A stretch of DNA of 59,145 nt. It comes from Burkholderiales bacterium. Lineage in GTDB: Bacteria; Pseudomonadota; Gammaproteobacteria; Burkholderiales; SG8-41. This document shows positions 36,821-53,416 of the stretch, piece by piece (within the stretch, counting starts at the first letter, position 1; each line of letters begins with the position of its first letter). The DNA lies in the NCBI GenBank assembly GCA_019746155.1, contig JAIESJ010000226.1, positions 1 through 59,145 of the forward strand. The letters are read 5' to 3'. Below the pieces are notes generated by a model that was not told the origin of the DNA, ran no database searches, and saw only the letters and a program-made list of their open reading frames with translations. Both the position numbers and the translations under genes were made by a program.

Positions 36821-36873
36821 GTTGTCACCTCGTTTTTGTAGCGCGCATCGTGATATCACGATGCCAGTCGATT

Positions 36874-37101: not shown

Positions 37102-37159
37102 TCTCCTATTGGGTTTTAACCGGACAATCCGGTCAGCCGAAAGGTGGAACTCGTTTGGA

Positions 37160-37190
37160 ATCTAAACCTTGGAGATAACTCCAAAGTCAA
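37160..37190 (-). promoter_or_regulatory. MerR-type promoter/operator upstream of copZ and the ATPase
   Basis: The minus strand reads TTGACT-TTGGAGTTATCTCCAAGGT-(T)TAGATT. The spacer is 19-20 bp and contains the dyad CTTTGGAG-N4-CTCCAAGG. Confidence 0.7.
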
Positions 37191-37263
37191 GTTTTTTTGG
37201 GCTGTATTATTTATCCGAGCGTCTGCAAAGCCCTTTTATCGGTGCTGTCTCCGCTCGAGACGA

Positions 37264-37827: not shown

Positions 37828-39080
37828 CGCTCGCTGTCTCCAATCGGGATGGCGCGCAAGCGCCGGACCGTCAGGAATTGCACGGCGGCGGCGGTAAGGC
37901 TCACCGCAAAGACGGCGGCGAACGATCCCACTTCCGCCACCGCGCCGCCTGCCATCGGCAATAGCGCGGCTGGTGCGGCCAAGGCATTGAAGTAGCCGCT
38001 GTAAGCGGGGCGGCGGTCATCCGGCGAAATCTCCATCAGATAACCGAGGTAGGCGATGGTGCTGCCGTTCCCCACCGCGCCCAGGAGCGCGAAGACCACC
38101 GCGAAATAGGGTAGCGCCGCCGCGCCCCCACGCCCATCGTTGGCCATCCAGGCGAGGGTGAGGATCGGGGCCACGGCGCCGAGGGCGGCAACGATCTCCA
38201 GCAACTCGCGCTTGCCGCGCCGGTCCCCCCACCAGCCCCACAGGGGGTTGGAAAGCAATGCGCCTGCCGTCTGCGCCCCGAGCAGAAACGCCACGTCCGC
38301 CGCGGAATCTTTCGCCTGCAGGATGTAGAAGGGGAGCGCCATCGCCGCCGCGCCGCCGAGCCACTGTGCGATAAGGAAGAGGCGGAAGCGGCGGTCGCCG
38401 ACAAAGGTATCAAGACCACCACGCAGGAACTTCAGGAAGCCCGCTGCAACTGAAGGTTCCATCGGAGCCGTCGGCTCGCCGGCTGAAACGAAGGATACTG
38501 CAGAGATGAGGAGCAAGACCGCGCCGAGCAGCAGCAATGCCGCATAGCCGCCGGGGAACGGCAGGGCCTGGAGTATCCGGTACGCTGCTGCGGCCACGGC
38601 AAGCGCGAGGAGACCCCCGCCGAAGAAGCGGAGCGCCAGCATCCGGCTGCGCTGCGCCGCGGGGATTGAACGGGCGACGATGTCATTGTATGGCACCGCC
38701 ACGATGCCGCTGACGAAGGCATAGAGGGTCCAGAGCGCGAAGAATAGCGCGACCGCGGACGCACCCGGCGGATCGACTGCCAACCACAGCAATGCGGCGA
38801 GACCGGCGAGACACGCCACGCGTCCGAACGCGCCCGCCATGTAGAACGGCAGGCGCTGCGCGCGTCGCTGCGCGTAGTAAGCGACAAAGAGTTGCGGGAA
38901 CAGCCAGCCGAAACGGGCGATAGCCGCCGCCGCGCCGACTGCGAAGGCGCTGCCTGTTAGCCCATGCACAAGCGCCGCCACGACGGTGCTCGTATCGACT
39001 GCCGCCGCACCGCCCTGGAAAAAGATACCGGCGGCCGAGATGCGCCAGAAGCGCCGCTTCGACTCAGTCGCTTCGGACAC
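37824..39080 (-). CDS. MFS transporter
   Basis: 418 aa, about 12 hydrophobic helices. ATGA overlap with the downstream GGCT-like gene. Confidence 0.8.
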   Translation of the reverse strand: MSEATESKRRFWRISAAGIFFQGGAAAVDTSTVVAALVHGLTGSAFAVGAAAAIARFGWLFPQLFVAYYAQRRAQRLPFYMAGAFGRVACLAGLAALLWLAVDPPGASAVALFFALWTLYAFVSGIVAVPYNDIVARSIPAAQRSRMLALRFFGGGLLALAVAAAAYRILQALPFPGGYAALLLLGAVLLLISAVSFVSAGEPTAPMEPSVAAGFLKFLRGGLDTFVGDRRFRLFLIAQWLGGAAAMALPFYILQAKDSAADVAFLLGAQTAGALLSNPLWGWWGDRRGKRELLEIVAALGAVAPILTLAWMANDGRGGAAALPYFAVVFALLGAVGNGSTIAYLGYLMEISPDDRRPAYSGYFNALAAPAALLPMAGGAVAEVGSFAAVFAVSLTAAAVQFLTVRRLRAIPIGDSER

Positions 39081-40104
39081 GCTGCGCTCCCGCTTCCCGC
39101 AGGTCGGCGAGCACCACGCCTTGGCGCCACAGCGCCAGGGCGCCGATACTGGCGACGGTCAAGAGGTTCGACGCCTGCACCACCAGCACCATCGCGAGCG
39201 CCTTCTCTTCGCCGACGTCGAAGAGCCCGAGCGCGAAAATCGCGCCGATCACGAAGCTGCCCGGAATTTTCGCGAAAGCGCCAGCAATGTGCACGAACCC
39301 CAGGAACACCATCAGGAATAGGTACTGCGCCGTCTGCAAACCAGCGCCGAAGGCGAGGCCTGCCCACAGGAAATGCGTGGCGGCGAAAAGCTTGATGGTG
39401 ACGCTTGCGGCGACGATGCCGAAACCGCGCCAGAATTCGCGCGGCCAGACGATGCCTGTTGCGAAAGAGGCTGCAACGCGCTTCACGGGTCCGAGGACGC
39501 GCGCCGGCAGGCGCTCGATCGATCGCATGAACCATCCGCCCGGACGCAATGTCCTGCGCTTGTAGAGTGAAAGCGCGAGCAGCAGCACCGCGAACAATAC
39601 GAAGCTGCCGGAAGCGGCCCACGTGAGCCCCGCGCGAATATCGCCGGTCGGATCAGGGAAGACCACGAGCAGCAGCGCAACCGGTACGAGCAGCGCGAAG
39701 ATAATGCCGTCGGTCACGCGGTCGATGGCAACGGTCGCAAGCACGGCGCTCATCGCCAAGCTCTCGCGACGGGCGACGAGCCAGGCGCGCGCCAGCGCGC
39801 TGAAGCCGAAGGGAATGAGCAGTCCCGCCAAGTAACCCGCCATGATCGCGCCGAACAGATGAAGCGTACCGATGGACCGCATCGGGTAGAGGATCTGGCG
39901 CCATTTCCAGGCCCGCACCAACTGCTCGCCCGCGATAGCGAGCGGCACCAGCAGCAGCAAGCGAACGTCGGCGCCGGCGAGGACGGTGCGAAAACTGTCG
40001 AGATCGAAGCGCCGCAGCACCCAGGCGAGCGCCGCAATGCCGACCAGTGCGCCGAGCCACGGCCACCGTCGGCGCCAGCGGCTCCCCGCCGCGATTTCCG
40101 TCAC
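39064..40104 (-). CDS. MprF-type flippase-like membrane protein (LPG_synthase_TM/UPF0104-like)
   Basis: 346 aa, about 8 TM, with the N-terminus RRRWPWLGALVGIAALAWVLRRFDLDSFRTVLAGADVRLL typical of this family. No synthase domain is present. Confidence 0.6.
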   Translation of the reverse strand: MTEIAAGSRWRRRWPWLGALVGIAALAWVLRRFDLDSFRTVLAGADVRLLLLVPLAIAGEQLVRAWKWRQILYPMRSIGTLHLFGAIMAGYLAGLLIPFGFSALARAWLVARRESLAMSAVLATVAIDRVTDGIIFALLVPVALLLVVFPDPTGDIRAGLTWAASGSFVLFAVLLLALSLYKRRTLRPGGWFMRSIERLPARVLGPVKRVAASFATGIVWPREFWRGFGIVAASVTIKLFAATHFLWAGLAFGAGLQTAQYLFLMVFLGFVHIAGAFAKIPGSFVIGAIFALGLFDVGEEKALAMVLVVQASNLLTVASIGALALWRQGVVLADLREAGAQRVRSD

Positions 40105-40631
40105 TCTCTCGCCTCGATGCTATCGAGGAAGGCGATGTAGTCCGCAGGCAGCCCGCGCTGGCGCGCCGCCTCGCGGATCAGGTTCAGGTACTGAGGCCCC
40201 GGTCTCCCCTCCGGCGCTGCGTGCGGCACCTTGTAGGTCACCACGGGCAACCGGTTGCCGGCGAGGTCCTCCGCCTCGGTCCAGAGGTAGTCGTACTGCT
40301 TGCCTTCGCTGTTATCGAGTCGGGCGAACTTGCGCCGGGGCAAGAGATAGAGAGCGCCGTAAACCACGCTGCCGGGCGCCGCAACGATGTTGGCCGGAGC
40401 CGACACGCCGGGGCGCATGCCTCCGGCAGATGTGAACACCAAGCGGTAACCATCAAGGCGACCGACCCGTGACTCCAACCACTTCATGTGCCGGCGTTCC
40501 CGGAACAGGCGCTCGTTCATGTTGGAGCCGTAGGCGAAATACCAGACCGGGTCCGGAACCTTCGCCGGCGGCATGCGGCCACGGCGATACCGGATCCACC
40601 GCCGCAGTACGGCCCACACTACGCGGTTCAT
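40101..40631 (-). CDS. gamma-glutamylcyclotransferase (GGCT/AIG2-like) fold protein, paralog 1
   Basis: 176 aa containing VWYFAYGSNMNERLFRERRHMKWLES...VVYGALYLL. ATGA overlap with the flippase-like gene. Confidence 0.7.
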   Translation of the reverse strand: MNRVVWAVLRRWIRYRRGRMPPAKVPDPVWYFAYGSNMNERLFRERRHMKWLESRVGRLDGYRLVFTSAGGMRPGVSAPANIVAAPGSVVYGALYLLPRRKFARLDNSEGKQYDYLWTEAEDLAGNRLPVVTYKVPHAAPEGRPGPQYLNLIREAARQRGLPADYIAFLDSIEARE

Positions 40632-40656
40632 TCCGCGTGCTCAGTGGAGCGCACGA

Positions 40657-41343
40657 TCAAGCTTCAGTTCGATCCGGATATCCGGGATGTGAGCGCGCAA
40701 TCGACGCTCGCGCCGCTTGAGCTGGCTCACGCGCTGGGCGCGCTTGCGACGCCCTGCCGACCGCGACGATGCGCACATCCAGCGCTTTGCCTTTGGGCGC
40801 GCGACGCACTGATGAACGCCCCGTGCTGCAACCACAGAATTCACACATAGTTTCCTCCTTGCTTTCGAACTTTTCCGGATGAGAGGCGCGGGACGATTGT
40901 GCTCGCTCCGCCGGTCGCATGCAGCCGCATGTGTCCCATGTGCACTTCCGGCCCGCAGGCTGTCGCACGGGTGATATGAGATCTTCAATCGCCGTGCGTA
41001 GACCCATAAGATGACGAATCCGCTGGTCGATCTCGTGCAGGTGCCTTCTCAGGATCTGCTGGTACTCAGGCTGTCGGCTCGGACAGCCTCTGTCTTGGGC
41101 AAGAGCGACCATTTCGCGGATGTCGGCGAGGCTCAGGCCGAACAGCCGCGCATGGTGAATGAACTTCAGCCGGCCCACATCGGCTTCGGTGTAGAGGCGG
41201 TGGCCCGCGGTGTGCACCCCGCCGTTGGTCCGGCCCGCCTTGGGAATCAGACCAATCTCCTCATAGTAGCGGATGGTCTTGACGGATAGGTCGGATGCCT
41301 TGGCTGCCTCGCCGATCGAGAAAGTAACAGGTCGATCCATCAC
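40657..41343 (-). CDS. atypical MerR-family regulator with long Cys-rich C-terminal extension
   Basis: 228 aa with the wHTH FSIGEAAKASDLSVKTIRYYEEIGLI and a coiled-coil, followed by CTWDTCGC. An in-frame SD-preceded MCEFCGC segment follows that. AAGGAG RBS. Confidence 0.75.
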   Translation of the reverse strand: MMDRPVTFSIGEAAKASDLSVKTIRYYEEIGLIPKAGRTNGGVHTAGHRLYTEADVGRLKFIHHARLFGLSLADIREMVALAQDRGCPSRQPEYQQILRRHLHEIDQRIRHLMGLRTAIEDLISPVRQPAGRKCTWDTCGCMRPAERAQSSRASHPEKFESKEETMCEFCGCSTGRSSVRRAPKGKALDVRIVAVGRASQARPAREPAQAARASIARSHPGYPDRTEA

Positions 41344-41363
41344 AACTCCTTTTCTGCAGCACT

Positions 41364-41395
41364 AACATAAAGCCTCCAGTGGCTGGAGCTTCAAG
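41364..41395 (-). promoter_or_regulatory. MerR-type promoter/operator upstream of the atypical merR-like gene
   Basis: The minus strand reads TTGAAG-(19 nt containing CTCCAG-CCA-CTGGAG)-TATGTT, 23 nt upstream of the ATG. Confidence 0.6.
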
Positions 41396-41423
41396 CCCTG
41401 TTGGCTCAGCGCGGTTTGCGCGC

Positions 41424-42404
41424 TCATTTTCCGGGCCGCCACTTCTGGATGCGGTTGTTGCCGAAGTCGGCAACGAACACCGTGCCGTCATCAGCGGCTG
41501 CCACCGCGATCGCGTGATCGAGCTGGCCAGGGCCGCGCCCCTTGGCGCCGAAGCTGGTCAGGAATTCGCCGTCGGCGGTGAATTTCTGAATCCGATGGTT
41601 GTAGAAGTCGGCGACGAAGACGTTGCCGGACTGGTCAAGGGCCACCCGCGTCACCGTCGCGAACCAGCCGTTGAACGGCCCGAAAATGTTCATCGCAAAC
41701 GGCCCGCCCCACTTGCGCCGGAAAGCGCCATCGGGACCGAATACCTGAATGCGGTCGTTGTAGCCGTCCGCCGCGTAGAGCGTGCCGTCAGCGCCGAGGG
41801 CGACGTCGGTGGGATAATTGAACTGTCCCGCCCAGATGCCGATCTTGCCCGTCGTGCCCCATTGCCGGATGAAACTGCCGTCCGCCTTGAGGTGTTGGAT
41901 ACGGTGATTGTAAAAATCGGCGATGAACAGATCGCCGTTGGGCGCCACGGCGATGCCCCCGGGGGCATTAAATTCGCCGGGGCCGCTGCCTGACTTGCCC
42001 ATCGTCCGCTTGGATGTGCCGTCGAGACCGAAAACCTGCACCCGGTCGTTGAAATATTCGGCAACGTAGAGCTCGTTGCCGTGGATCGTGAGATTCATCG
42101 GCCGACCAAGCTTGCCGGGCTCAGTTCCTGGTGCGCCGAATTGACGTTTGAAATGACCGTCCGTGTCGAATACCTGGATGCGGCCGTTGCGGGAGTCGGA
42201 AACAAACACTTCGGCTCTCGCCACAGCGATCCCGGTCGGATCGTTGAACTGTCCCGGGGCGTCACCCTTGCCGCCCCACGCGGTCACGAACTGGTAAGGC
42301 GGTTCTTTCGCCGAAGGAACGAAAGCCACCCAGCCACCCACAGCGAGGAGCGCGAGCGCGATGACAGTATTACGGACAAACTTGAGGACAGTTTTAACGT
42401 TCAT
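41424..42404 (-). CDS. NHL-repeat six-bladed beta-propeller protein, N-terminally anchored/exported
   Basis: 326 aa with a hydrophobic N-terminus. Six repeats of the ...NGRIQVFD.DG.F...G.G.GQFN.P.G(I/V)A... type are present. Confidence 0.75.
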   Translation of the reverse strand: MNVKTVLKFVRNTVIALALLAVGGWVAFVPSAKEPPYQFVTAWGGKGDAPGQFNDPTGIAVARAEVFVSDSRNGRIQVFDTDGHFKRQFGAPGTEPGKLGRPMNLTIHGNELYVAEYFNDRVQVFGLDGTSKRTMGKSGSGPGEFNAPGGIAVAPNGDLFIADFYNHRIQHLKADGSFIRQWGTTGKIGIWAGQFNYPTDVALGADGTLYAADGYNDRIQVFGPDGAFRRKWGGPFAMNIFGPFNGWFATVTRVALDQSGNVFVADFYNHRIQKFTADGEFLTSFGAKGRGPGQLDHAIAVAAADDGTVFVADFGNNRIQKWRPGK

Positions 42405-42413
42405 GCCCGGTGC

Positions 42414-43310
42414 TCAGAAGTTGACCCGGAAGCCCGTGCTGAAAATGTAGTTGTTCTTGAGTGCGATGCCGTTGAGATTTTGCACGACCGGAACCTGAAT
42501 GCCGGCTTCCAGGATCCATTTCTGGGTCACGTATTGCAGTCCGGGCGATAAGAACAGCGTGGTTCCTCCCGAGTTCGGATCATCAACCCCGCCAATCCGG
42601 TTTTTCTCGACACGGACGAGGTTCGCTTCCAGCACACCGTAGAGGAAAGCGGGCACGCCACTACCGAGAGTCCGCGGCCAAAGGCGGTATTGGAAAGAAG
42701 CATCGAGCTTGGCGACGTTACCGAATCTGAAGCCGTTGGCCTCGCGGTTGGCATTGTAGCTCAACTGGCTGTCGATCTGATAAGCGAGCGTTTGATAGGT
42801 GGCCACCACGCCCCCCAGCGCATCCCATGAGCCCGTGCCGGGTTGAATGGGGGACGGAAGACGCCCGAGACCGTCTTGAGCATTATCACGTCCCGTCGGC
42901 GCTTTCACACCTAGGAAGGGGGAGACCCTGAAAGTACGTCCCGGCACATCGCTTTGGTAGGCGGTATAACGGCCAAACAACGTCAAGTCGCCGATGCCCT
43001 GGTCACTACGCGTGACGCGCTGTCCGCCCCTGTCCATGTCGAGACGTTTGTCGAGATAAGGCAGCATCCCGAACAAGGCGACATCCCGGGTTACGCCATA
43101 ACCCAGAACGGAAACGAGTCCGGAAACTTTCATGTCACGGTTTGCCGGGGAGGAATCGCGTGAGTTTTTGTCGTAGATAAACTGCTCGCGCCAGACCATG
43201 CCGCCCTCGTGGACCGGGAGTGCGGTATTGAAGGTGATGGGAGCGCTCCACACCACGCCGACCACGTTCAATGCGGCAAGAACGATGGAGAGGGGTGTGA
43301 ACGCTTTCAT
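42414..43310 (-). CDS. outer-membrane beta-barrel protein (MetA-pathway/'transporter' family-like)
   Basis: 298 aa with a signal peptide, alternating strands and a C-terminal ...STGFRVNF. Confidence 0.5.
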   Translation of the reverse strand: MKAFTPLSIVLAALNVVGVVWSAPITFNTALPVHEGGMVWREQFIYDKNSRDSSPANRDMKVSGLVSVLGYGVTRDVALFGMLPYLDKRLDMDRGGQRVTRSDQGIGDLTLFGRYTAYQSDVPGRTFRVSPFLGVKAPTGRDNAQDGLGRLPSPIQPGTGSWDALGGVVATYQTLAYQIDSQLSYNANREANGFRFGNVAKLDASFQYRLWPRTLGSGVPAFLYGVLEANLVRVEKNRIGGVDDPNSGGTTLFLSPGLQYVTQKWILEAGIQVPVVQNLNGIALKNNYIFSTGFRVNF

Positions 43311-43321
43311 GATGCGGTCTC

Positions 43322-43639
43322 CTATTTGGTTTGCGTAGCGGGCTGTACCGGCTCAAATTTACGCAGAGTAAAACCGGCATCCTTGACTGCCCGTTGCGCC
43401 GTAGCTTCATCGAGGCTTGCGCCCTCGGTCATCGTGACATTTACGGTACCGCTGGCGATGTCGACCTCGATCTTCTGGACGCCCTTTATCGCATTGAGTT
43501 TCTTTTCGATGCCATAGGCGCAGAACGGGCAAGCGAGTCCATCTACGCGGAGTTTGTAGGCCTGTTGAGCGGCAAACGCGCTCACTGACATCAACACCAG
43601 ACCCAGGATAAGCACTGTTCGCTGCCAAAAAACTTTCAT
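43322..43639 (-). CDS. periplasmic HMA-domain metal-binding protein (MerP-like)
   Basis: 105 aa with a signal peptide (LVLMSVSAFAA) and an HMA fold containing GLACPFCAYG. Confidence 0.8.
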   Translation of the reverse strand: MKVFWQRTVLILGLVLMSVSAFAAQQAYKLRVDGLACPFCAYGIEKKLNAIKGVQKIEVDIASGTVNVTMTEGASLDEATAQRAVKDAGFTLRKFEPVQPATQTK

Positions 43640-43670
43640 GATAGAAACCTCCGTATATAAATCATCCGCC

Positions 43671-44177
43671 CTACCTGTGCCCGTCCGGCCAAGTGATCAT
43701 CGGTATATTGATGACTACCCCCGGTTGTTCCACGGTGATTTCGCCTTTTGCGAGGGCCTGTGTCACTTCCGCGGCGCTTTTGAGTTCGCGCGCTTGCTGG
43801 GGTTGTTTCCAGGACACCAGTTTGAGCGCACGTAACGGCGTGTAGCCCGCGTGGCCCGGGGGGTTGTCGAAGACATCGGGCTGGAACTTGAAGGGGCCGT
43901 CACCAGGCACGCCATTGGTGAAAACGTAAACGTTCGCGAGCGCCTCCTTCGGCACACTGGCAAGTGAGGGCACAACGATGACCGGCGAGCCCTTCATGAC
44001 AGTCAGAAGATCCGCCACTTTCGGGTCCGACGCTTCGGTATGAATGAAGCGGATGCGCTGTCCCTCCATGAATCCGTCAACGGGGGGCACGACGAACCCC
44101 GTTTGCTGCCTCGCGACGAGGACGAATGCCCCGATGATCAATGCCACCAGCGCGGTGACAACCAGGTTACGCAACAT
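43671..44177 (-). CDS. membrane-anchored periplasmic protein of unknown function
   Basis: 168 aa from ATG 44177 (MLRNLVVTALVALIIGAFVLV...) with an AAGGAG RBS. No recognisable motif. Lies 24 nt after the ATPase stop. Confidence 0.6.
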   Translation of the reverse strand: MLRNLVVTALVALIIGAFVLVARQQTGFVVPPVDGFMEGQRIRFIHTEASDPKVADLLTVMKGSPVIVVPSLASVPKEALANVYVFTNGVPGDGPFKFQPDVFDNPPGHAGYTPLRALKLVSWKQPQQARELKSAAEVTQALAKGEITVEQPGVVINIPMITWPDGHR

Positions 44178-44201
44178 GAAAATCTCCTTGGACTGACACA
44201 C

Positions 44202-46706
44202 TCATGCGTTTGTCGCCGGCACACCATTAGCACTGACTTCGAAGCCACGCGTTACGATCGCCGCGCGAATACGTTCGGCGTCGGCCTTGTCCGCGTGGTA
44301 GGTGACGGTGACAAGTTTGCGGTCCGGATCACCGCTTACATTTTCAATGCCATCCATCTTCAGCACGGCCTCCGCAATCGAATCGACGCAATGCTCACAG
44401 TGCATGTTGGCAATGGTGTAAGTGACGCTGGCATGCCAGTCGCGGCTCTTGGCCGCCGGCAATAATTTCCCGGCGAACGAGTTGGTGAGTACCGTCGTCA
44501 CGCTTGCGGCCATGGCAATCATTGCCCACACCGGGTGGACGAGACCCGTTACCGCGAGCGGAATCCCGATTGCATTAAAGGAAAACGCGAGTGCAAGGTT
44601 CTGGACGGTCTTGCGGTACGATGCTTTGCCGATCTGGAAAGCGTCATTCACCGCGGCCAGGCGATGCCCTACTAAAACCACATCGGCCGATTCGATCGCG
44701 ATGTCCGTGCCGGCGCCAATCGCGATGCCGACGTCGGCCTGCATGAGGGCCGGGGCATCGTTGATGCCGTCGCCGACGAAGGCCACGCGATATCCCTGCC
44801 GCTGCAGATCCCGCACGGCTTGGGCCTTGTCCTCCGGCAAAACCTCGGCCCGAAACTCCTTGATACCGAGGCGGGTTGTAACCGCACGTGCCGTGCGGTG
44901 ATTGTCGCCAGTGAGCATGACCGGTTCCAGTCCCGCGGCGCGAAGTCCCTCAATGGCCTCTCCGGCGTCAGGCTTAATTTGATCGGCGATGGCGATCAAC
45001 GCAGCCAACCGCCCATCGACCGCGACCGCGATCACTGTGAACCCTGCCTCCTGCATCGATGCTTCACGCTCTTGCATGAATTCGATGCTGATTCCTTGAG
45101 ACTTCACATATGAAGGACTGCCGACGCAAACGCGGCGACCCTCGACCGTTGCTGCAACCCCTCGGCCCGGCACCGCGAGAAAATCCCGAGGATTGGGAAC
45201 CCGGATTTGCGCCGCTGCGGCCGCTGCCACGACGGCACGCGCGAGCGGATGTTCCGATACGCTCTCGACTGCCGCTGCCAAACGTAGCGTTTCGTTTCCG
45301 TCGTGGCCTTCGATCACCACGACTTCCGAGACGGCTGGCTTACCCAGCGTGATCGTGCCGGTCTTGTCGAGGATGATTTTTCGTATGTCTTTCAGGACCT
45401 GAAACGCTTCCGCCGATCGCATCAGAATCCCGCGCTCGGCGGCCATGCCGCCCCCGCGTATCATCGCAAGCGGGGTCGCCATTCCCAAGGCGCACGGATA
45501 TCCCATCACCAGCACCGCCAGCGCCGCAAAGACCGCGCGCGTCCAATCCGCAGCGCCGCTCATCCACCATGCGCCCGCGGTCCAGATGAATACCGCGGCT
45601 GCGGCGAAGAGCAGCACCGCCGGCACGTAGATCTGGAGGATGCGGTCGACCAGCGCGAGTAGTCCGGGCTTGAGCGCGCGCGCTTCTTCGACTTGCCGCG
45701 CCACCTGGCTAAGAAAACCTTCCTCGCCGACCTTGGTCACCCGCACAACCAGGGTGCCGAATTGGACGATGGAGCCGCCAATTACCGCATCGCCTTGGGT
45801 TTTTTCCGCGGGAATCGACTCGCCGGTCACCAGGCTCTCATCCACTCCGGATGCGCCCTCGACCACCATACCGTCCACCGGGATCGATTCGCCCGGGCGG
45901 ACACGAACCAGATCGCCGGGGGTGACTTGCTCTACCGGAACGATTTCTTCCGCGCCGTCCCGAATCACGCGCGCGGTGGCGGGCACCAGCGCCAACAGCT
46001 TGCGCACGGCTTGCGAAGCGCGTGTCCGGACCAGCAACGACACATAGCCGGAGAGCAGGTGGTAAGTCGTGACAAACACCGACACGCCGAAGAAATCGGG
46101 AACCGGAAATGCCGAATAGACGTAGCCGAGGAAACCGCCGGTGAGCCCGGCAAACGCTCCGAATTCCAGCAGCACATGCTGGTTCAAAATACCGCGCCGC
46201 AGGCTCGCCCACGCCATGGTGAGGATATGCCAACCGGGACCGAACATCGTGGAGAGCGCAAGAACCGGCATGAGCCAGTAGAGCGTTGCCATCCCTTGGG
46301 GCGGCAACTGCTCAAGCCACATCAGCGCCATGGCCCCGAGCGATATCGCGGCAAAGCCCGCTGCGACAAGAAGATTCTGCCGCTGCTGCCGGAGTTCGGC
46401 TTCCTGCTCTTCGTAGGCCCGGACCTTGTTCGGGTCGCGCACGGTGTAGCCGAGATCGAGCAGCGTCTCCTTGAGCTTTCCTGGAGTCACGATCGCCGGG
46501 TCGTATTCCACCAGGGCTTCTTCGTGGGCGAGGTTCACGTTCACACCGAGAACCCCGTCCATACGCCCGAGCGCCTGGGTGACGCTCGCCACGCAGAACG
46601 AGCACGCCATGCCGCCGATCTTGAACTGCAATTTGCTCGGCCGGGGGACAGGCGAAAACGTTTCTTGGGCGTTCACCGCCATGATCGGTTCGCCGCGCAG
46701 GCTCAT
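44202..46706 (-). CDS. P1B-type heavy-metal ATPase with Y-P-C motif and HMA domains at both termini
   Basis: N-terminal HMA (GGMACSFC) and C-terminal HMA (NMHCEHC), plus DKTGTITLG, TGDNHRTA and [10 protein letters not shown]. The TM motif is GYPCALG. An alternative start is ATG 46682. Confidence 0.9.
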   Translation of the reverse strand: MSLRGEPIMAVNAQETFSPVPRPSKLQFKIGGMACSFCVASVTQALGRMDGVLGVNVNLAHEEALVEYDPAIVTPGKLKETLLDLGYTVRDPNKVRAYEEQEAELRQQRQNLLVAAGFAAISLGAMALMWLEQLPPQGMATLYWLMPVLALSTMFGPGWHILTMAWASLRRGILNQHVLLEFGAFAGLTGGFLGYVYSAFPVPDFFGVSVFVTTYHLLSGYVSLLVRTRASQAVRKLLALVPATARVIRDGAEEIVPVEQVTPGDLVRVRPGESIPVDGMVVEGASGVDESLVTGESIPAEKTQGDAVIGGSIVQFGTLVVRVTKVGEEGFLSQVARQVEEARALKPGLLALVDRILQIYVPAVLLFAAAAVFIWTAGAWWMSGAADWTRAVFAALAVLVMGYPCALGMATPLAMIRGGGMAAERGILMRSAEAFQVLKDIRKIILDKTGTITLGKPAVSEVVVIEGHDGNETLRLAAAVESVSEHPLARAVVAAAAAAQIRVPNPRDFLAVPGRGVAATVEGRRVCVGSPSYVKSQGISIEFMQEREASMQEAGFTVIAVAVDGRLAALIAIADQIKPDAGEAIEGLRAAGLEPVMLTGDNHRTARAVTTRLGIKEFRAEVLPEDKAQAVRDLQRQGYRVAFVGDGINDAPALMQADVGIAIGAGTDIAIESADVVLVGHRLAAVNDAFQIGKASYRKTVQNLALAFSFNAIGIPLAVTGLVHPVWAMIAMAASVTTVLTNSFAGKLLPAAKSRDWHASVTYTIANMHCEHCVDSIAEAVLKMDGIENVSGDPDRKLVTVTYHADKADAERIRAAIVTRGFEVSANGVPATNA

Positions 46707-46809
46707 CGGGTGCGCCGGTGCGAGCCGGTGCGGGAGCTGGAAGCTGCCATCTCGAATTTCCGCGTTTTTTCCTTGACGCTGCCTCTGTGCCTTCCGGCCG
46801 CAAGCGCCA

Positions 46810-46840
46810 CTCTAGACCTTGGAGCCAAGTCCAAGGTCAA
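46810..46840 (-). promoter_or_regulatory. MerR-type promoter/operator upstream of the dual-HMA ATPase operon
   Basis: The minus strand reads TTGACC-TTGGACTTGGCTCCAAGGT-(C)TAGAGT, with the dyad ACCTTGGA-N6-TCCAAGGT inside a 19-20 bp spacer. Confidence 0.7.
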
Positions 46841-46994
46841 GAGGTTTCTTCGAGTCGTTTGGATCCAGCGCTCAAGTCTTCGGCTCCGCTATTGCGGGTT
46901 CAAACCCCTGGGACAATATTCTTCCGGTTATTTAGGTATCCAAATTGAGCTAGATCAACCGGGTTTCAATCCCGCCGGGCCTTCGTCGATCGCA

Positions 46995-47013
46995 GGGCAC
47001 AGCGCCTGTGCCC
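46995..47013 (-). terminator. GC-rich stem-loop between the cus operon and the ATPase promoter
   Basis: GGGCACAG-CGC-CTGTGCCC, an 8-bp stem. There is no clear U-run, so terminator function is uncertain. Confidence 0.35.
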
Positions 47014-47038
47014 CGGTTCAGCGGTCTTTTCTTGCACG

Positions 47039-47188
47039 TCAAGGTTTCTCCGCGCCGGGCTTCGCGGCATCGTGCTCATGCGATTGCGAGGCCTGGTTTG
47101 GCGAATTGTTCGCGCCGTGCGAGCCCATATGGCCACTGGGGCCGACCACAACCAGGAACACGACCATCAGAATCATCATCACTGCCAT
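47039..47188 (-). CDS. 49-aa single-TM protein with His-containing polar tail
   Basis: Below the track cutoff. Sequence is MAVMMILMVVFLVVVGPSGHMGSHGANNSPNQASQSHEHDAAKPGAEKP. A GGAGAAAAA sequence precedes ATG 47188, which lies 31 nt after the cusA stop. Confidence 0.4.
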   Translation of the reverse strand: MAVMMILMVVFLVVVGPSGHMGSHGANNSPNQASQSHEHDAAKPGAEKP

Positions 47189-47219
47189 TTTTTCTCCAGG
47201 TTAAAAAACATCAAACTGA

Positions 47220-50200
47220 TCAGGCTGACCGAGCTGGCTGCCCGCGCTTGATACCGACCTCCTTCACCAGCGCATAAATCGCCGGAATCACGATCAGGGT
47301 GAGAATCGTGGCGGAGATCATCCCGCCCACCATCGGCGCGGCGATACGGCGCATGACTTCCGAGCCGGTGCCGCTGCCCCACATGATCGGCAGCAAGCCC
47401 GCGATGATGGCAAACACCGTCATCATCAGCGGCCGCACCCGCATCACCGCCCCCTGCATGACGGCGTCGTAGAGGTCGGCGACCGTGACCGGCTCCCTCG
47501 CTACGTGCCGCTTCGCCGTCACCGCGGAGAACGCGTGGTCGAGGTAAATCAGCATCACCACCCCGGTCTCGGCGGCCACGCCTACCAATGCGATAAACCC
47601 GACCGCCACCGCCACGGAGAGGTTGTAGTCAAGCCAGTACATGAGCCACACTCCGCCCACCAGCGAGAAGGGCACCGAGAGCATCACGATCAGCGTTTCC
47701 GTGAGCCGCCTGAAATTCAGATATAGCAGCACGAACACGATCAGTATGGTCAGCGGCACCACTACCGCAAGCTTCGCTTTTGCCCGCTCCATGTATTCAA
47801 ACTGGCCGCTCCAGGTGGCGTAGTAACCCGGTGGGAACCTGACCTGCTCGCGCACCGCCTTCTGCGCGTCGGCCACGTAGCCGCCGATGTCGCGGTCCCG
47901 GATGTCCACGAAGATATACGCCGCCAGCAGCGCGTTCTCGGTGCGGATACCGGGAGGGGCCTTGATCAAACTGACATTTGCAACCTGTCCCAATGGAATC
48001 ATCGCCCCGCCCATGATGGGCACAAGAATCTGGGTGGCGATGGCCTGGGGATCCTGGCGCAGTTCGCGCGGATAGCGCACGGTGACGCCGAACCGTTCCA
48101 GTCCTTCTACCGTCGTGGTCACCATCTCGCCACCCAGGGCGGTGCCGATCACGTCCTGCAAATCGCCCACCGACAACCCATAACGCGCCAGGGCCATGCG
48201 GTCCGGCACAATGTCCAGATAATAGCCGCCGGTGACGCGCTCGGCGTAGGCGCTGGTGGTGCCGGGTACGGTTTTCACGACGCTCTCGATCTCTTTGGCG
48301 AGCGTCTCGATCTCGCCCAGGTCCTTGCCGAACACCTTGATGCCGATGGGGGTGCGGATGCCGGTGGAGAGCATGTCGATGCGGGCCTTGATCGGCATGG
48401 TCCAGGCGTTGCTGACGCCGGGCATCTGCACCGCCTGGTCCATCTCGGCAATCAGTTTGTCGATGGTCATGCCCGGGCGCCATTCGCTCTCCGGCTTGAG
48501 GTTGATCACCGTCTCGAACATTTCAAGCGGCGCGGGATCGGTCGCCGTTGTCGCGCGGCCCGCCTTGCCGAACACCGACTCCACTTCGGGAAACGTCTTG
48601 AGGATCTTGTCCTGGGTCTGCAGCAACTCGCCGGCTTTGGTGACCGACATCGAAGGCAGCGAGGACGGCATATACAACAAGGTTCCCTCGTTCAAGACCG
48701 GCATGAACTCGCTGCCGAGTCTCATTGCGGGGTAGGTGGTCAACCCCAGTACCACCGCGGCCGCAACGAGAACGAGTTTTTTCCAGTGCATCGCCCAGGC
48801 GATGATCGGACGATAGATCCAGATCATAAAGCGCACGATGGGGTTCTTGTGCTCGGGCGGAATATGGCCGCGGATGAAGAGCAGCATCAACACCGGAACC
48901 AGGGTGATGGACAGAAAAGCGGCGCCCGCCATGGCGAAGGTCTTGGTGTAAGCGAGCGGCTTGAACAGCCTGCCTTCCTGGGCTTCCAGGGTGAACACCG
49001 GCAGGAACGAAACGGTGATGATGAGCAGGCTGAAGAACAGCGCCGGCCCCACCTCGCGGCAGGCGGCAATGATCGGTTCGACCCGGGATTGCCCGGGCTT
49101 CAGCCCCTCGAGGTGCTTGTGGGCGTTCTCGATCATCACGATCGCGGCGTCCACCATGGCGCCGATGGCGATCGCGATGCCGCCCAGGCTCATGATATTG
49201 GAATTGAGCCCCATCACGTGCATGGCGATGGCCGCGATCAGGATGCCGATCGGCAGCATGATGATGGCCACCAGCGCGCTGCGCGCATGCAGCAGGAACA
49301 CGATACACACCAGCGCCACGATGACGCTTTCCTCGATCAGGGTCCGTTTCAGATTGTCGATGGCGCGATGGATCAGGTCCGAGCGGTCATAGACCGCCTG
49401 CAGCGACACGCCCTCCGGCAGGCCGCTGGAGATCTCCGCGATCTTGGCCTTCAGATTGTGGATGACGTCAAGCGCGTTTTGACCGTAGCGCGCGACGGCG
49501 ATGCCGGCGACCACCTCGCCTTCGCCGTTCAGTTCCGCGATTCCGCGGCGTTCGTCCGGGGCCAATTCGACCCGCGCCACGTCCCGGATCAGCACCGGCG
49601 TGCCTTTTTCCGCCTTGATCACGAGATTCTCGATGTCTGATATGCCGCGCAGGTAGCCGCGGCCACGCACCACGAATTCGGTCTCCGCCATCTCGATCAC
49701 GCGGCCGCCCACGTCCCGGTTGCTGGCCCGGATGACTTCCACGACCTTCATGAGAGGTATGCCGTAGGCCTGCAGCTTGCGCGGTTCGACTGTGATCTGA
49801 TAGGTCTTGACGAAACCGCCCACACTCGCCACCTCGGCCACGCCCTGGGCCTTGGTGAGCTGGTAGCGCACGAACCAGTCCTGGATCGTGCGCAATTCCG
49901 CGAGCGTCCTCTGCGCTCCGATAACGGCGTACTGGTATACCCAACCCACGCCGGTGGCGTCGGGCCCCAGCGACGGCTTCACCCCCTGCGGCATGCGCCC
50001 GGAGGCAAAGTTGAGGTATTCGAGCACGCGGGAGCGGGCCCAGTAGATGTCGGTGCCGTCCTCGAAAATGACATAGACGAACGACGCGCCGAAACTCGAG
50101 AGCCCCCGTACCACCTTGGATTTCGGCACCGCGAGCATCGCGGTGCTCAACGGATAGGTGATCTGGTCTTCCACCACTTGGGGCGCCTGGCCCGGGTATT

Positions 50201-50354
50201 CGGTGTAGATGATGACCTGCACGTCCGACAGGTCGGGAATCGCGTCCAGCGGCGTCTTGATCACCGCGTAGATGCCCGCCGCGACGAGGAAGAACGTGCC
50301 GAGGAGCACCAGGAACACGTTGCGCACGGACCATTCGATGATGCGGTTCAGCAT
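47220..50354 (-). CDS. cusA: heavy-metal efflux RND permease (CusA/CzcA family)
   Basis: 1044 aa with 12-TM RND architecture and an N-terminus MLNRIIEWSVRNVFLVLL typical of the HME-RND family. Confidence 0.93.
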   Translation of the reverse strand: MLNRIIEWSVRNVFLVLLGTFFLVAAGIYAVIKTPLDAIPDLSDVQVIIYTEYPGQAPQVVEDQITYPLSTAMLAVPKSKVVRGLSSFGASFVYVIFEDGTDIYWARSRVLEYLNFASGRMPQGVKPSLGPDATGVGWVYQYAVIGAQRTLAELRTIQDWFVRYQLTKAQGVAEVASVGGFVKTYQITVEPRKLQAYGIPLMKVVEVIRASNRDVGGRVIEMAETEFVVRGRGYLRGISDIENLVIKAEKGTPVLIRDVARVELAPDERRGIAELNGEGEVVAGIAVARYGQNALDVIHNLKAKIAEISSGLPEGVSLQAVYDRSDLIHRAIDNLKRTLIEESVIVALVCIVFLLHARSALVAIIMLPIGILIAAIAMHVMGLNSNIMSLGGIAIAIGAMVDAAIVMIENAHKHLEGLKPGQSRVEPIIAACREVGPALFFSLLIITVSFLPVFTLEAQEGRLFKPLAYTKTFAMAGAAFLSITLVPVLMLLFIRGHIPPEHKNPIVRFMIWIYRPIIAWAMHWKKLVLVAAAVVLGLTTYPAMRLGSEFMPVLNEGTLLYMPSSLPSMSVTKAGELLQTQDKILKTFPEVESVFGKAGRATTATDPAPLEMFETVINLKPESEWRPGMTIDKLIAEMDQAVQMPGVSNAWTMPIKARIDMLSTGIRTPIGIKVFGKDLGEIETLAKEIESVVKTVPGTTSAYAERVTGGYYLDIVPDRMALARYGLSVGDLQDVIGTALGGEMVTTTVEGLERFGVTVRYPRELRQDPQAIATQILVPIMGGAMIPLGQVANVSLIKAPPGIRTENALLAAYIFVDIRDRDIGGYVADAQKAVREQVRFPPGYYATWSGQFEYMERAKAKLAVVVPLTILIVFVLLYLNFRRLTETLIVMLSVPFSLVGGVWLMYWLDYNLSVAVAVGFIALVGVAAETGVVMLIYLDHAFSAVTAKRHVAREPVTVADLYDAVMQGAVMRVRPLMMTVFAIIAGLLPIMWGSGTGSEVMRRIAAPMVGGMISATILTLIVIPAIYALVKEVGIKRGQPARSA

Positions 50355-50355
50355 G

Positions 50356-51984
50356 TCAGTGCCCCTTGTGGCCGGAATCAGTACCGCTGGCGGCGGGAGT
50401 GGCGCCCGCCGGTTGGATACTGACGATCACGTACTCGCCGGCCGACTCCTCGATGATGTTGAACGCGATCTTCTGACCGGGTTTCAGCGTCCGGAGCAAC
50501 GCCGGGTCCTTGACCCGGAAGCCCATGGTCATCGCCGGCCATTTGAGGCTGGCGATCGGACCGTGGGCAAGCGTTACCGTTGCGCGGGATGCATCCACGG
50601 CTTCAATGCTGCCTTCGCCGCGGTGATTCGCGAGCGCGGGCGCCGTGACAGACGCGCCGGGTTTGACCTGCTCCTTCTCACCAGGCTTGGCGCCGTGGGC
50701 GCTGTGGCCGAAGACGCCGAGGGCCGCTTTGAGGTTACTCTCGGCGTCGATCAGAAAATTCGCGCTGACCACCACGTTCTCGCCAGCCTTGATCCCGTCG
50801 AGCACTTCGATGTAGTCGTCGGCGCGCATTCCCAGCTTCACCGGTCGCGGCTCGAATGCCCCTTCGCCCTGCCCCACCAGCACCAGTTGCCGCGTGCCGG
50901 TGTCGAGTACGGCCGAATCGGGAACGGCCAATACCTTGCCGCGGTCTTTGCCGGAGGCTATCTCCATCCTCGCGTACATGGCGGGCTTGAGCTGGCCGGC
51001 CGGATTGGGCAGTTCGATTCGCACCTTGGCGGTGCGGGTTTCCGGCATGACGGTGGGGTAGATAAACGTCACTTTGCCGTTAAAGATCTTATCCGGATAA
51101 GCGTCAACCCTGATTTTTACCGATTGCCCCTGGCGCACTAATCCAAGATCCTGCTCGAACACGTCCGCCAGCAGCCACACCGAAGACAGGTCCGCGATCT
51201 GGTAGAGCATTTCGCCCGGCATGAACCGCATGCCCGCGATGGCGCGTTTCTCCATCACCACGCCGTTTGCTTGCGCACGCAATGTGAGGTATTGCCGCAC
51301 CTTGCCCTCTTGCTGCAGCCGCTGCAGTTCCGCATCCGAGATATCCCAGTTACGCAACCGCTGCAGCGCGCTGTCGACGAGCGTGCGCATGCTCGCCTCG
51401 ACCTCGGGACTTGCGCCTTTCACGGCCTGCACGCCTTTCCAGGCAATCAGGTATTCCTGCTGTGCGGTCACGAGATCGGGGCTGTAGACCTCGAGCAGCG
51501 GCTCGCCCCGGCGCACCAACTGGCCGGTCGTATTCACGTAGAGCTTGTGGATCCAGCCCTCGAACCTGGGCGAGACGGTATGCAACTGGCGCTCGTTCGC
51601 CTGGATCGTTGCCACGGCTTGTACGGTGCGAGTGAGCTCACGCAGTTCCACGGTTTCAGTGCGCACGCCGAGCTTCTGCACCTTGTCGGGATTGATCTTC
51701 ACCACGGGGCCGCTGGCGGCCGGCTCTTCTCCCTCGTAGACAGGCACATAGTCCATTCCCATCGGGTCCTTCTTCGGCACGGGCGACGTGTCGGGCAGAC
51801 CCATCGGGTTACGGTAATAGAGAATCTTGCGCTCGGGCGCGGCCGTGCCCTGCGTGCTCACTGCAGAGGGCGCGGGTTTGGCGCGACCCCACCAATACCC
51901 TGCGGCAAGGGCGGCCGCGACCAGGGTCACAACAATTATCAGTTTAACGATGGATTTCACAGGAGGCTCCGCTGACATATGCAT
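50356..51984 (-). CDS. cusB: RND periplasmic adaptor (CusB-like) with C-terminal CusF-like domain
   Basis: 542 aa. The N-terminal metal-binding segment is YYRNPMGLPDTSPVPKKDPMGMDYVPVY. The C-terminus GEGSIEAVDASRATVTLAHGPIASLKWPAMTMGFRV resembles CusF. Confidence 0.9.
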   Translation of the reverse strand: MHMSAEPPVKSIVKLIIVVTLVAAALAAGYWWGRAKPAPSAVSTQGTAAPERKILYYRNPMGLPDTSPVPKKDPMGMDYVPVYEGEEPAASGPVVKINPDKVQKLGVRTETVELRELTRTVQAVATIQANERQLHTVSPRFEGWIHKLYVNTTGQLVRRGEPLLEVYSPDLVTAQQEYLIAWKGVQAVKGASPEVEASMRTLVDSALQRLRNWDISDAELQRLQQEGKVRQYLTLRAQANGVVMEKRAIAGMRFMPGEMLYQIADLSSVWLLADVFEQDLGLVRQGQSVKIRVDAYPDKIFNGKVTFIYPTVMPETRTAKVRIELPNPAGQLKPAMYARMEIASGKDRGKVLAVPDSAVLDTGTRQLVLVGQGEGAFEPRPVKLGMRADDYIEVLDGIKAGENVVVSANFLIDAESNLKAALGVFGHSAHGAKPGEKEQVKPGASVTAPALANHRGEGSIEAVDASRATVTLAHGPIASLKWPAMTMGFRVKDPALLRTLKPGQKIAFNIIEESAGEYVIVSIQPAGATPAASGTDSGHKGH

Positions 51985-51989
51985 TCGAG

Positions 51990-53366: not shown

Positions 53367-53416
53367 AGAAAGACGTACAGCCCCGACCGCGGCGCGCTAC
53401 CGCACGCGGGGGGGGA

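Follow-up and report, generated by a model that had tools for sequence, protein, structure and literature searches.

The systems closest to the locus described here fall into five groups. The first is the transport arm of mercury resistance operons of the Tn21/Tn501 type (MerR/merO, MerP, MerT/MerC/MerF, MerA), in which MerR activates a long-spacer promoter containing a dyad and a secreted HMA protein carries a CxxC pair. Mer operons as described have no outer-membrane component, no propeller and no P-type ATPase. The second is the periplasmic Cu(I)/Ag(I) relay CopA-CusF-CusCBA of E. coli, in which a P1B ATPase, a small periplasmic metal carrier and an outer-membrane exit are all induced by metal excess. 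The third comprises the COG4313 outer-membrane channels (Pput2725, PDB 4RL8; TcpY; SphA) and the amyloid exporter FapF; the known members take up hydrophobic organics or secrete unfolded polypeptide, the characterised channels TcpY and SphA being uptake channels (PMC4493636), and none is linked to metals, to an HMA protein or to an NHL propeller. The fourth is CopAL6, a metagenomic copA-like gene product with a YPC motif in its metal-binding helix and one HMA domain at each end (PMC11082258). It is the only experimentally tested protein of this architecture that was found, and it was studied alone, only with Cu, in E. coli lacking copA, where it lowered Cu resistance and gave the highest Cu accumulation, which is not the behaviour of an exporter. 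The fifth consists of the accessory subunits of P-type ATPases (Na,K-ATPase beta, CDC50, KdpC), single-pass membrane proteins with an extracytoplasmic domain that are encoded with or translationally coupled to the pump and co-inherited with one pump clade. No P1B ATPase is known to have such a subunit.

The locus analysed here is contained in a contig of a Burkholderiales bacterium (GenBank assembly GCA_019746155.1, contig JAIESJ010000226.1, positions 1 to 59,145; this whole stretch of 59,145 nt is referred to as the window). A first-pass annotation of the sequence had noted five genes between 41424 and 46840 behind a MerR-type promoter, and this observation was confirmed. All five genes are located on the minus strand, the intergenic gaps are exactly 24, 31, 11 and 9 nt, and Shine-Dalgarno sequences precede three of the four downstream genes. 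No terminator-like site was detected in any of the gaps, and the number of terminators in the region equals the shuffle expectation. The promoter at 46809-46840 (minus strand) reads CTTGACC-N20-TAGAGT, that is a TTGACC and a TAGAGT element separated by a 20-nt spacer with the dyad ACCTTGGA-N6-TCCAAGGT, and fulfils the criterion for promoters activated by MerR-family regulators, -35 and -10 hexamers 19-20 nt apart spanning an inverted repeat. The dyad pattern occurs once in the window and was not found in 100 shuffles. A near-twin of this operator (CTTGACTTTGGAGTTATCTCCAAGGTTTAGATT, 37150-37195, minus strand) is located in front of a second, paralogous YPC ATPase gene (34367-36859), which has no DUF7482 partner. 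The same type of dyad precedes an operon of a copZ-like gene and an ATPase gene in locus L020 (L numbers denote individual loci used for comparison) and stand-alone copies of the three distal genes in L029, L053 and L060. A MerR-family gene at 30010-30498 (minus strand), whose product shows the cysteine pattern SCC ... C-x9-C, is a candidate for the cognate regulator. This assignment is inferred from the same cysteine pattern in a MerR gene situated 3-4 kb downstream of the five-gene operon in L018. To name the inducing metal from the regulator, its NCBIfam scores were inspected, but the best hits (ZntR, MerR and CueR) were near-ties and all below their cut-offs.

The first gene (44202-46706) encodes a P1B ATPase of 834 aa with E1-E2 ATPase and HAD domains, the phosphorylation motif DKTGT at residue 447 and two HMA domains, one N-terminal (CSFC at residue 35) and one C-terminal (CEHC at residue 770). 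It therefore belongs to the heavy-metal class of P-type ATPases. The ligand signature of Cu(I)-exporting ATPases of the CopA type, CPC, YN and MxxSS in TM4, TM5 and TM6, is absent; instead, YPC (residue 403), FN(x4)P and AMAASVT are found, and the signature YPC, FN and MAASV extends throughout the clade. With curated NCBIfam models, scores of 553.7 for TIGR01525 (cut-off 346) and of 470.6 for the Cu subfamily model TIGR01511 (cut-off 397) were obtained, while the CopA equivalog NF007952 scored 486 against a cut-off of 1316. The nearest solved structures are Cu(I) ATPases, ATP7B, AfCopA and LpCopA. In a phylogenetic analysis, all 53 YPC ATPases formed one clade with an SH-aLRT of 100, apart from the CPC ATPases. 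The paralogue encoded at 34367-36859 falls into a separate YPC subclade lacking DUF7482, together with Halomonas-type ATPases whose genes directly precede the three distal genes.

The second gene (43671-44177) specifies a protein of 168 aa with one N-terminal TM helix and a domain of about 140 aa, predicted to be periplasmic, without conserved cysteines. In the first-pass annotation it was described as lacking recognisable motifs, but it belongs to Pfam family DUF7482 (PF24298, 89.9 bits, cut-off 27.5), although only profile positions 1-117 of 257 are matched. Of 2633 homologues, at least 120 are unnamed or 'hypothetical'. Invariant residues include H46, E48, M61, D101, Y112, W123 and W163. 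A fold search of the AF2 model (pLDDT 83) against the PDB gave no match better than E 0.9 and hence no functional lead. There is also no sequence or fold similarity to the accessory subunits mentioned above.

The third gene (43322-43639, 105 aa) encodes an HMA protein (PF00403) with a signal peptide ending in SAFA|AQQ and the motif GLACPFC. Although signal peptide and CxxC pair are present, it does not qualify as MerP, since the MerP equivalog TIGR02052 scores 40.9 bits, below its cut-off of 92.55, and CPFC replaces the MerP-type motif. The fourth gene (42414-43310, 298 aa) encodes a predicted 12-stranded outer-membrane beta-barrel of the COG4313/Phenol_MetA_deg family (PF13557, 47 bits, cut-off 22) with no cysteine, a conserved mature N-terminus, APITFNTALPV, ahead of strand 1 and a C-terminal F (RVNF). 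A sequence-profile search against the PDB gave no hit; relatives were found only by a fold search with the AF2 model (pLDDT 80), the best being FapF (5O65/5O67) and the COG4313 channel 4RL8 with TM-scores of 0.63-0.72 and E values of 1e-8 to 1e-11. The fifth gene (41424-42404, 326 aa) specifies an NHL protein (PF01436, 136 bits, five stretches), residues 41-320 of which align with the six-bladed NHL structures of TRIM71 and Thin at E values of 1e-50 to 1e-66. It carries a conserved N-terminal membrane anchor (GWxAFVPSAKEPPY) rather than an obvious cleaved signal. It does not qualify as the scytonemin NHL protein ScyF, as NF035926 scores 203.8 bits against a cut-off of 350. The possibility that the propeller binds metal through thiols or histidines was rejected, since it has no cysteine and no conserved histidine beyond the structural motifs; the mature part is free of cysteine in 70 of 75 homologues, and the conserved residues are structural NHL motifs plus the loop WGGPFAMNIFGPFNGWF.

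To determine if the five genes are conserved as a unit, as the first-pass annotation would require, their neighbourhoods were compared in other genomes. The complete order recurs in about seven other genomes, including the isolates Aromatoleum toluclasticum ATCC 700605 and Pelomicrobium sp. G1, but overall two separate modules became apparent, and three of the four downstream genes are not conserved with the ATPase gene. Module 1 consists of the YPC ATPase and DUF7482. An ATPase gene lies directly upstream of the DUF7482 gene in 41 of 61 assessable loci, in Proteobacteria, Chloroflexota, Rokubacteria, Binatia, Armatimonadota, Gemmatimonadota and others, and the motif is YPC in 38 of 38 readable cases. 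DUF7482 is therefore regarded as a dedicated partner of YPC ATPases, but not as obligatory for the whole clade, because some YPC subclades lack it. Module 2, the trio, consists of the genes for the HMA protein, the barrel and the NHL propeller. The barrel has 279 relatives among species representatives. In the best 80 loci, the HMA gene is adjacent to the barrel gene in 76 and the NHL gene in 75, and the motif L(A/S)CPFC(A/T)Y is conserved in 72 of 76 trio loci. The trio follows DUF7482 in only about 10% of either sample: in 8 of 80 trio loci, while in 80 DUF7482 loci the trio's barrel occurs in 8 and its NHL gene in 9. These loci were sampled through DUF7482 or the barrel, and the adjacency frequencies are thus conditional on these anchors. 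Mostly the trio is an autonomous cassette, usually with its own MerR-type promoter about 80-90 nt upstream of the HMA gene, or the tail of merTP(F)A operons, and most trios stand with no pump at all. Module 1 also occurs in Chloroflexota, where no trio was found. Nevertheless, ATPase genes adjoin the trio in the same orientation in 15 of 80 trio loci, and every one of these ATPases is of the YPC/FN/AMAASV type, whether or not DUF7482 is present. Several independent arrangements were observed, upstream or downstream of the trio and with or without DUF7482, which fits a functional link. In the window, the trio has lost its own promoter and depends, as far as can be inferred from the 31-nt gap, on the ATPase promoter. 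In public sequencing runs guessed to be RNA, only sparse contigs of 150-370 nt at a depth of 2-7 were present; two of them cross the barrel/NHL junction, but some also cover DNA upstream of the promoter, and they may represent DNA or read-through.

Both modules are recurrently found inside or next to mercury resistance operons. Mer genes lie within 9 kb in 37 of 80 trio loci, and merA is the gene directly upstream on the same strand in 14 of 80. Between merA and the trio, merB or other constant extra genes were searched, but only varied genes were detected, encoding a MerR_1/EAL/DUF3330 protein, a thioredoxin-like protein and a patatin-like protein. The stand-alone trio of Marinobacter algicola DG893 is located behind the canonical mer operator TTGACTCCGTATCATGGTACGGACCCTACACT, and other mer-type operators precede further trios. 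MerA scored above the NCBIfam cut-off in 12 of 14 strong carriers of module 2, compared to 57 of 387 other genomes of the same class sample (odds ratio 35, p = 2e-8), and was present in 25 of 50 genomes carrying DUF7482 (p = 7e-8 against the same background). A Chloroflexota operon reads merR, merA (TIGR02053, 548 bits), YPC ATPase, DUF7482, CcdA-like, YtkA-like, without merT. In L020, a bona fide Hg-type merR gene (176 bits, cut-off 151) lies just upstream of the operon. On the other hand, the operon analysed here is not a mer operon. No merA, merT or merP is contained in the operon or in the window, the merR-merTPA operon of this genome being located on another contig (C277), and its operator is not of the TCCGTAC..GTACGGA type but in the style of CueR, CadR or ZntR sites. 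Part of the co-localisation with mer genes may also reflect general clustering of metal resistance genes in islands.

Compared to the CopA-CusF-CusCBA relay, the logic of which had been proposed for this locus, the carrier is a CxxC ferredoxin-fold HMA protein and not a Met/Trp CusF, the outer-membrane protein is a passive, predicted 12-stranded barrel instead of a TolC-like duct energised by an RND pump, and the pump has YPC and not CPC. The context points to Hg(II)-like metal rather than to a Cu relay of the CusF or CopC type. A hand-off from the C-terminal HMA domain of the ATPase to the periplasmic HMA protein was rejected as topologically unlikely, since both ends of 8-TM P1B ATPases are cytoplasmic. 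The interpretation as one self-contained relay from the inner to the outer membrane is only partly supported, because the operon is a fusion of two independent modules, and its outward direction is an assumption.

The comparisons themselves establish that five co-oriented, tightly packed genes lie behind one MerR-type promoter, that they are a fusion of two separately mobile modules, and that both modules recur in or next to mercury resistance operons in carriers enriched for MerA; of the modular make-up and the mercury link we are confident. Substrate, transport and its direction, by contrast, are inferred from sequence, context and predicted structures alone. The common substrate would be a very thiophilic metal, slightly more likely than not Hg(II), with Cu(I), Ag(I) and Au(I) as possible secondary inducers. 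In the reading we prefer, with a probability of about 0.4, the MerR-type sensor binds the metal, the ATPase moves it across the inner membrane, at about even odds in the conventional outward direction, and DUF7482 acts at the periplasmic exit. The secreted HMA protein would then chelate the metal on its CPFC pair and shield periplasmic thiols, and the barrel, docked or gated by the anchored propeller, would provide a dedicated passage through the outer membrane; this complete outward relay remains tentative. In its favour, the ATPase is most similar to Cu(I) exporters and the operon lies next to cusCBA. DUF7482, the barrel and the propeller lack cysteine and only the HMA protein has a CxxC pair, and genes for CcdA/DsbD-like proteins recur beside the modules, which fits a need to keep a periplasmic CxxC pair reduced. 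However, a passive barrel cannot drive metal outward against an external excess, release of Hg(II) from a CxxC chelate into a cysteine-free channel is chemically uphill, and the phenotype of CopAL6 and the function of TcpY and SphA do not fit export.

Among the alternatives, an inward, mer-like relay survives best, although it is considered unlikely. The barrel would admit Hg(II) species into the periplasm, the CPFC HMA protein would capture the metal, DUF7482 and the YPC ATPase would import it using ATP, and the cytoplasmic HMA domains would pass it to MerA for reduction. This would fit the position of the trio at the end of merTP(F)A operons, the presence of MerA in almost all of its carriers, the uptake function of the characterised COG4313 channels, the raised Cu accumulation and sensitivity with CopAL6 and the Chloroflexota operon without merT. 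Moreover, all known mer accessory transport proteins are importers, capture by a thiol pair after passage through cysteine-free proteins is chemically downhill, and P-type pumps with obligatory extracytoplasmic subunits (Na,K-ATPase beta, CDC50, Kdp) carry a substrate inward. Conversely, no P1B ATPase has been rigorously shown to import, the sequence is closest to Cu(I) exporters, and the operon adjoins the efflux system cusCBA. About 85% of DUF7482 loci have no mer gene within 9 kb and half of the carrier genomes show no MerA; there, an inducible importer of a toxic metal would be harmful. The CopAL6 phenotype could also reflect toxicity of an overexpressed membrane protein. If this reading were true, the operon would encode the first importing P1B ATPase, the first P1B pump with a beta-subunit-like partner and the missing outer-membrane step of bacterial mercury detoxification.

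Less likely still is a Cu(I)/Ag(I)/Au(I) system with a variant CopA or GolT and a periplasmic copper chaperone, the mercury association being a by-product of metal-island clustering. The score with the Cu subfamily model, the nearest structures, the adjacent cusCBA genes and the resemblance of the half-site ACCTTGGA to CueR-type sites would be in accordance with it, as would two-Cys CueR-like MerR genes following the trio in L024, L026 and L028 and a Met-rich segment, typical of periplasmic Cu(I)/Ag(I) sites, in the DUF7482 protein of Indioceanicola. Against it, the ligands defining Cu(I) pumps are changed, CopAL6 did not protect against Cu, canonical mer operators and bona fide merA and merR genes are linked at the operon level, and the MerA enrichment holds at the genome level and not only within islands. 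That there is no hand-off and that a pump with its partner lowering cytoplasmic metal and a separate periplasmic or outer-membrane protective cassette are merely co-transcribed here appears the least likely. Each module occurs far more often without the other, trios usually carry their own promoter and module 1 occurs in Chloroflexota without a trio, but trios adjoin YPC ATPases specifically and the trio of the window apparently depends on the ATPase promoter.

Literature searches on DUF7482, YPC-type P1B ATPases, NHL proteins in mer operons or with HMA proteins, mercury and the outer membrane, and P-type ATPases in connection with merA, mercury, efflux and MerR revealed no description of either module apart from CopAL6. 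The passage of Hg(II) across the outer membrane and the protection of the periplasm have not been assigned to specific proteins, and here a three-gene cassette found in hundreds of species is wired into mer operons and mer operators. Likewise, no dedicated mercury-handling P-type ATPase is known. The YPC clade has lost one of the two transmembrane cysteines and appears, as inferred from the motifs, to have moved the tyrosine from TM5 to TM4, and it travels with a private periplasmic partner whose predicted fold matches no solved structure. Both modules also recur with CcdA-like and gamma-glutamyl/MFS modules, which suggests an unstudied thiol-based network for soft metals in the cell envelope. 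In a plasmid collection, close hits were few, two for DUF7482 and none above 45% identity for the barrel, but the plasmid contexts in Indioceanicola and Deinococcus were still informative. Cultured carriers are A. toluclasticum ATCC 700605, Pelomicrobium sp. G1, M. algicola DG893 and Pseudomonas kielensis MBT-1.

All five minus-strand ORFs reported by the first-pass annotation are present at the coordinates it gave, and this observation is confirmed. The ATPase (44202-46706, 834 aa) contains E1-E2 and HAD domains and two HMA domains, with CSFC at residue 35, YPC at 403, DKTGT at 447 and CEHC at 770. The next ORF starts at the ATG at 44177, and its database homologues are 168-171 aa long and begin with M-x-R-N-L. 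Its product has one N-terminal helix and matches Pfam DUF7482. The third gene specifies an HMA protein with a signal peptide and the motif GLACPFC, the fourth a PF13557 outer-membrane protein ending in RVNF, and the fifth an NHL propeller. The genes are separated by 24, 31, 11 and 9 nt, and good ribosome-binding sites precede the DUF7482, HMA and barrel genes. Terminator-like hairpins were not detected in any of the gaps, and their number in the region equals the expectation from shuffled sequence.

The promoter CTTGACC-N20-TAGAGT spans the dyad ACCTTGGA-N6-TCCAAGGT at 46809-46840. This dyad pattern is unique in the window and was obtained 0 times in 100 shuffles, but a near-twin precedes the second YPC ATPase of the window. 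Between cusA and the promoter, a small ORF (47049-47186, minus strand), already flagged by the first-pass annotation, encodes one hydrophobic helix and a His-rich tail (MAVMMILMVVFLVVVGPSGHMGSHG...HEHD...). In relatives, a small cytoplasmic CopZ-like HMA gene with the unusual motif HC(A/S)GC lies downstream of an operator of the same type and precedes the YPC ATPase (locus L020, 4549-4766; locus L046 from Aromatoleum toluclasticum, 4891-5110), whereas the operon of the window lacks this gene. The atypical merR gene located 80 nt downstream of the NHL gene has its own promoter with a different dyad, CTCCAG-CCA-CTGGAG (41355-41400, minus strand), and heads another operon.

To determine how far the five genes are conserved together, one genome per species was searched with DUF7482 and with the barrel, first as single queries and then with alignments of each. 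The resulting 160 loci were annotated by tblastn using the proteins of the window and the annotated mer proteins of an Indioceanicola plasmid. These analyses revealed two modules, the first consisting of the ATPase and DUF7482. In 41 of 61 assessable DUF7482 loci, a P1B ATPase ends less than 400 nt upstream, and in some of them the two matched stretches abut or overlap. In several further loci the ATPase is found 0.7-1 kb upstream or directly downstream. The transmembrane motif is YPC in all 38 readable cases. The hosts span Beta- and Gammaproteobacteria, Chloroflexota, Rokubacteria, Binatia, Armatimonadota, Gemmatimonadota, Tectomicrobia and Nitrospinota, and the pair is also carried by a Deinococcus plasmid.

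In a tree of 57 ATPases, the 53 YPC sequences form one clade (SH-aLRT 100, long stem), apart from the CPC pumps. DUF7482-linked pumps fill two large pure subclades, while the second YPC pump of the window falls with DUF7482-less pumps of the Halomonas type. In two Chloroflexota genomes, distant DUF7482 relatives (48-50% identity) follow ATPases of the CPC rather than the YPC type (loci L190, 6743-8857, and L192, 6720-8867), and these ATPases group with the CopA of the window in the tree. The signature of the YPC clade is YPC in TM4, FN(x4)P in TM5 and AMAASV in TM6. One cysteine is lost, and the tyrosine seems to have moved from TM5 to TM4.

The second module consists of the HMA protein, the barrel and the NHL propeller. 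For the barrel, 279 relatives were detected among species representatives, and in the best 80 loci the HMA gene lies directly upstream in 76 and the NHL gene directly downstream in 75. The HMA motif L(A/S)CPFC(A/T)Y is present in 72 of 76 loci. The anchor of the propeller ends in the conserved ..GWLAFVPSAKEPPY, although a few lineages have a lipoprotein form instead, and the mature propeller has no cysteine in 70 of 75 homologues. In Marinobacter algicola DG893 the three genes stand alone between unrelated genes. The gene directly upstream of the trio on the same strand is a MerR-family regulator in 19 loci, merA in 14, DUF7482 in 8, a YPC ATPase without DUF7482 in 3, and a GGCT-like gene in 3. 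A second, paralogous barrel (25-31% identical) with its own HMA gene often sits directly upstream of the trio (loci L074, L078, L080, L089, L091-L093, L102, L105, L109-L111 and L116), and an HMA-barrel pair without an NHL gene is present on an Acidibrevibacterium plasmid (L033).

The complete five-gene order, sometimes with a CcdA-like gene inserted, recurs in about seven other genomes, among them Aromatoleum toluclasticum ATCC 700605 and Pelomicrobium sp. G1. Every ATPase adjoining a trio in the same orientation is of the YPC type, with or without DUF7482 and irrespective of whether it is located upstream or downstream. This arrangement was found in 15 of 80 loci, and CPC pumps in those loci lie on the other strand or further away.

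Both modules are tied to mercury resistance. In 37 of 80 trio loci, mer genes are located within 9 kb, and in 14 the order is merT-merP-(merF)-merA-HMA-barrel-NHL. Stand-alone trios carry their own MerR-type promoter about 80-90 nt upstream of the HMA gene, which in Marinobacter, Amylibacter and several MAGs is the canonical mer operator (TCCGTAC..GTACGGA). In other loci the operator is of the ACCTTGG..CCAAGGT type seen in the window or of a CTGGAGT..ACTCCAG type. The dyad in front of the atypical merR gene of the window is of the same type as operators preceding stand-alone trios in other genomes (loci L024, L026, L095, L100 and L114). Judged by these sequences, the trio is therefore controlled by at least three classes of MerR operator in different hosts. 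The regulators directly upstream of trios score best against the Hg-MerR model, but with 127-135 bits they remain below its cut-off of 151. A Chloroflexota MAG harbors merR, merA, YPC ATPase, DUF7482, a CcdA-like gene and a YtkA-like gene on one strand, with no merT, and its merA scores 548 bits against a cut-off of 454. In L020, a bona fide Hg-type MerR gene (176 bits) and merT/P/F genes flank the operon. On a plasmid of Indioceanicola profundi (L032, 7836-8429), DUF7482 stands without an ATPase inside the GGCT-MFS operon, directly after merTPFA and between a MerR gene and the MprF-like/MFS/GGCT genes. It carries a Met-rich N-terminal stretch (MMATGSDMEPMMDMSGGMDMSS) resembling periplasmic Cu(I)/Ag(I) motifs.

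The association was also apparent at the level of whole genomes. Of 401 genomes drawn evenly from the class, 14 carry a strong barrel match, and 12 of these have MerA over its cut-off, compared to 57 of the other 387 (odds ratio 35, p = 2e-8). Of 50 genomes carrying DUF7482, 25 have MerA (p = 7e-8 against the same background, which is not lineage-matched).

Structure predictions were consulted next. The barrel model (pLDDT 80) matches FapF and the COG4313 channel Pput2725 with TM-scores of 0.63-0.72. [quoted passage not shown] The conserved mature N-terminus of the barrel, APITFNTALPV, may be that lumen segment, as inferred from sequence. The DUF7482 model (pLDDT 83) has no fold match in the PDB, and its invariant residues include His, Glu, Asp, Met, Tyr and Trp, but no Cys. 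In the propeller, the conserved residues are the structural NHL motifs plus a hydrophobic loop, WGGPFAMNIFGPFNGWF, which we infer to be a docking or gating element and not a metal site or an enzyme. Only the HMA protein carries thiols. CcdA/DsbD-like genes recur next to both modules, which fits a need to keep a periplasmic CxxC pair reduced. In A. toluclasticum a CcdA/DsbD_2-like membrane protein is encoded between the DUF7482 and HMA genes (L046, 7953-8624), and in a Chloroflexota mer operon (L139, 8275-9488) a DsbD_2 gene plus a YtkA-like gene follows DUF7482. A conduit for reducing power therefore seems to be a recurrent third partner.

The first-pass annotation had interpreted the five genes as a self-contained relay from the inner to the outer membrane, and this interpretation is only partly supported, since the operon and the system are real but composite. 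The analysis establishes the structure of the operon, its modular make-up, the association of each module with mercury genes and the specific association between YPC pumps and the trio. Everything beyond this is inference. In this view, the substrate would be Hg(II)-like and would be carried across the inner membrane by the pump, with DUF7482 acting on the periplasmic side. The HMA protein would chelate it in the periplasm, and the barrel with the propeller would provide passage through the outer membrane. The direction is the weakest step, and the outward relay is favored only tentatively, with a probability of about 0.4. It is indicated by the facts that every well-studied P1B pump exports, that the nearest relatives of the ATPase are Cu(I) exporters, that most MerR-YPC-DUF7482 operons have no mer gene nearby, and that cusCBA is adjacent.

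An inward relay is only somewhat less probable than the outward one. The logic of mer systems is import for reduction, trio carriers almost always have MerA, and characterised COG4313 members are uptake channels. Capture by a thiol pair after passage through cysteine-free proteins is chemically downhill, whereas passive export against an external excess is not. In addition, CopAL6, the only tested pump found with YPC and an HMA domain at each end, lowered Cu resistance and gave the highest Cu accumulation in E. coli lacking copA (PMC11082258). A Cu/Ag system appears less likely still, but this reading concerns the metal rather than the direction and overlaps with the others. That the two modules act independently is the least probable alternative.

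The system would work like the transport arm of mer operons or like the CopA-CusF-Cus relay, but it is a member of neither. The HMA protein fails the MerP model, the pump fails the CopA ligand signature and the CopA equivalog model, and the operon has no merA or merT. The barrel and the propeller are members of broad fold families for which no role with metals is known. In the literature searched, no description of DUF7482, of the trio or of a mer-linked P-type ATPase was found. What is added by this window to metal resistance and mer biology is the fusion of the trio with the YPC pump, the YPC-DUF7482 partnership and its own link to mercury, along with a mechanism that is testable and possibly important.

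The whole 18-kb stretch from 36000 to 54000, comprising the GGCT operon, the five genes and cusCBA, is colinear at about 98.5% identity with single contigs at 59x and 208x depth. These contigs originate from 2025 sequencing runs filed under different organism names (X11, X18, and eight or more further runs with the same word share). A close relative, or a shared contaminant or co-culture partner, seems to have been sequenced repeatedly.
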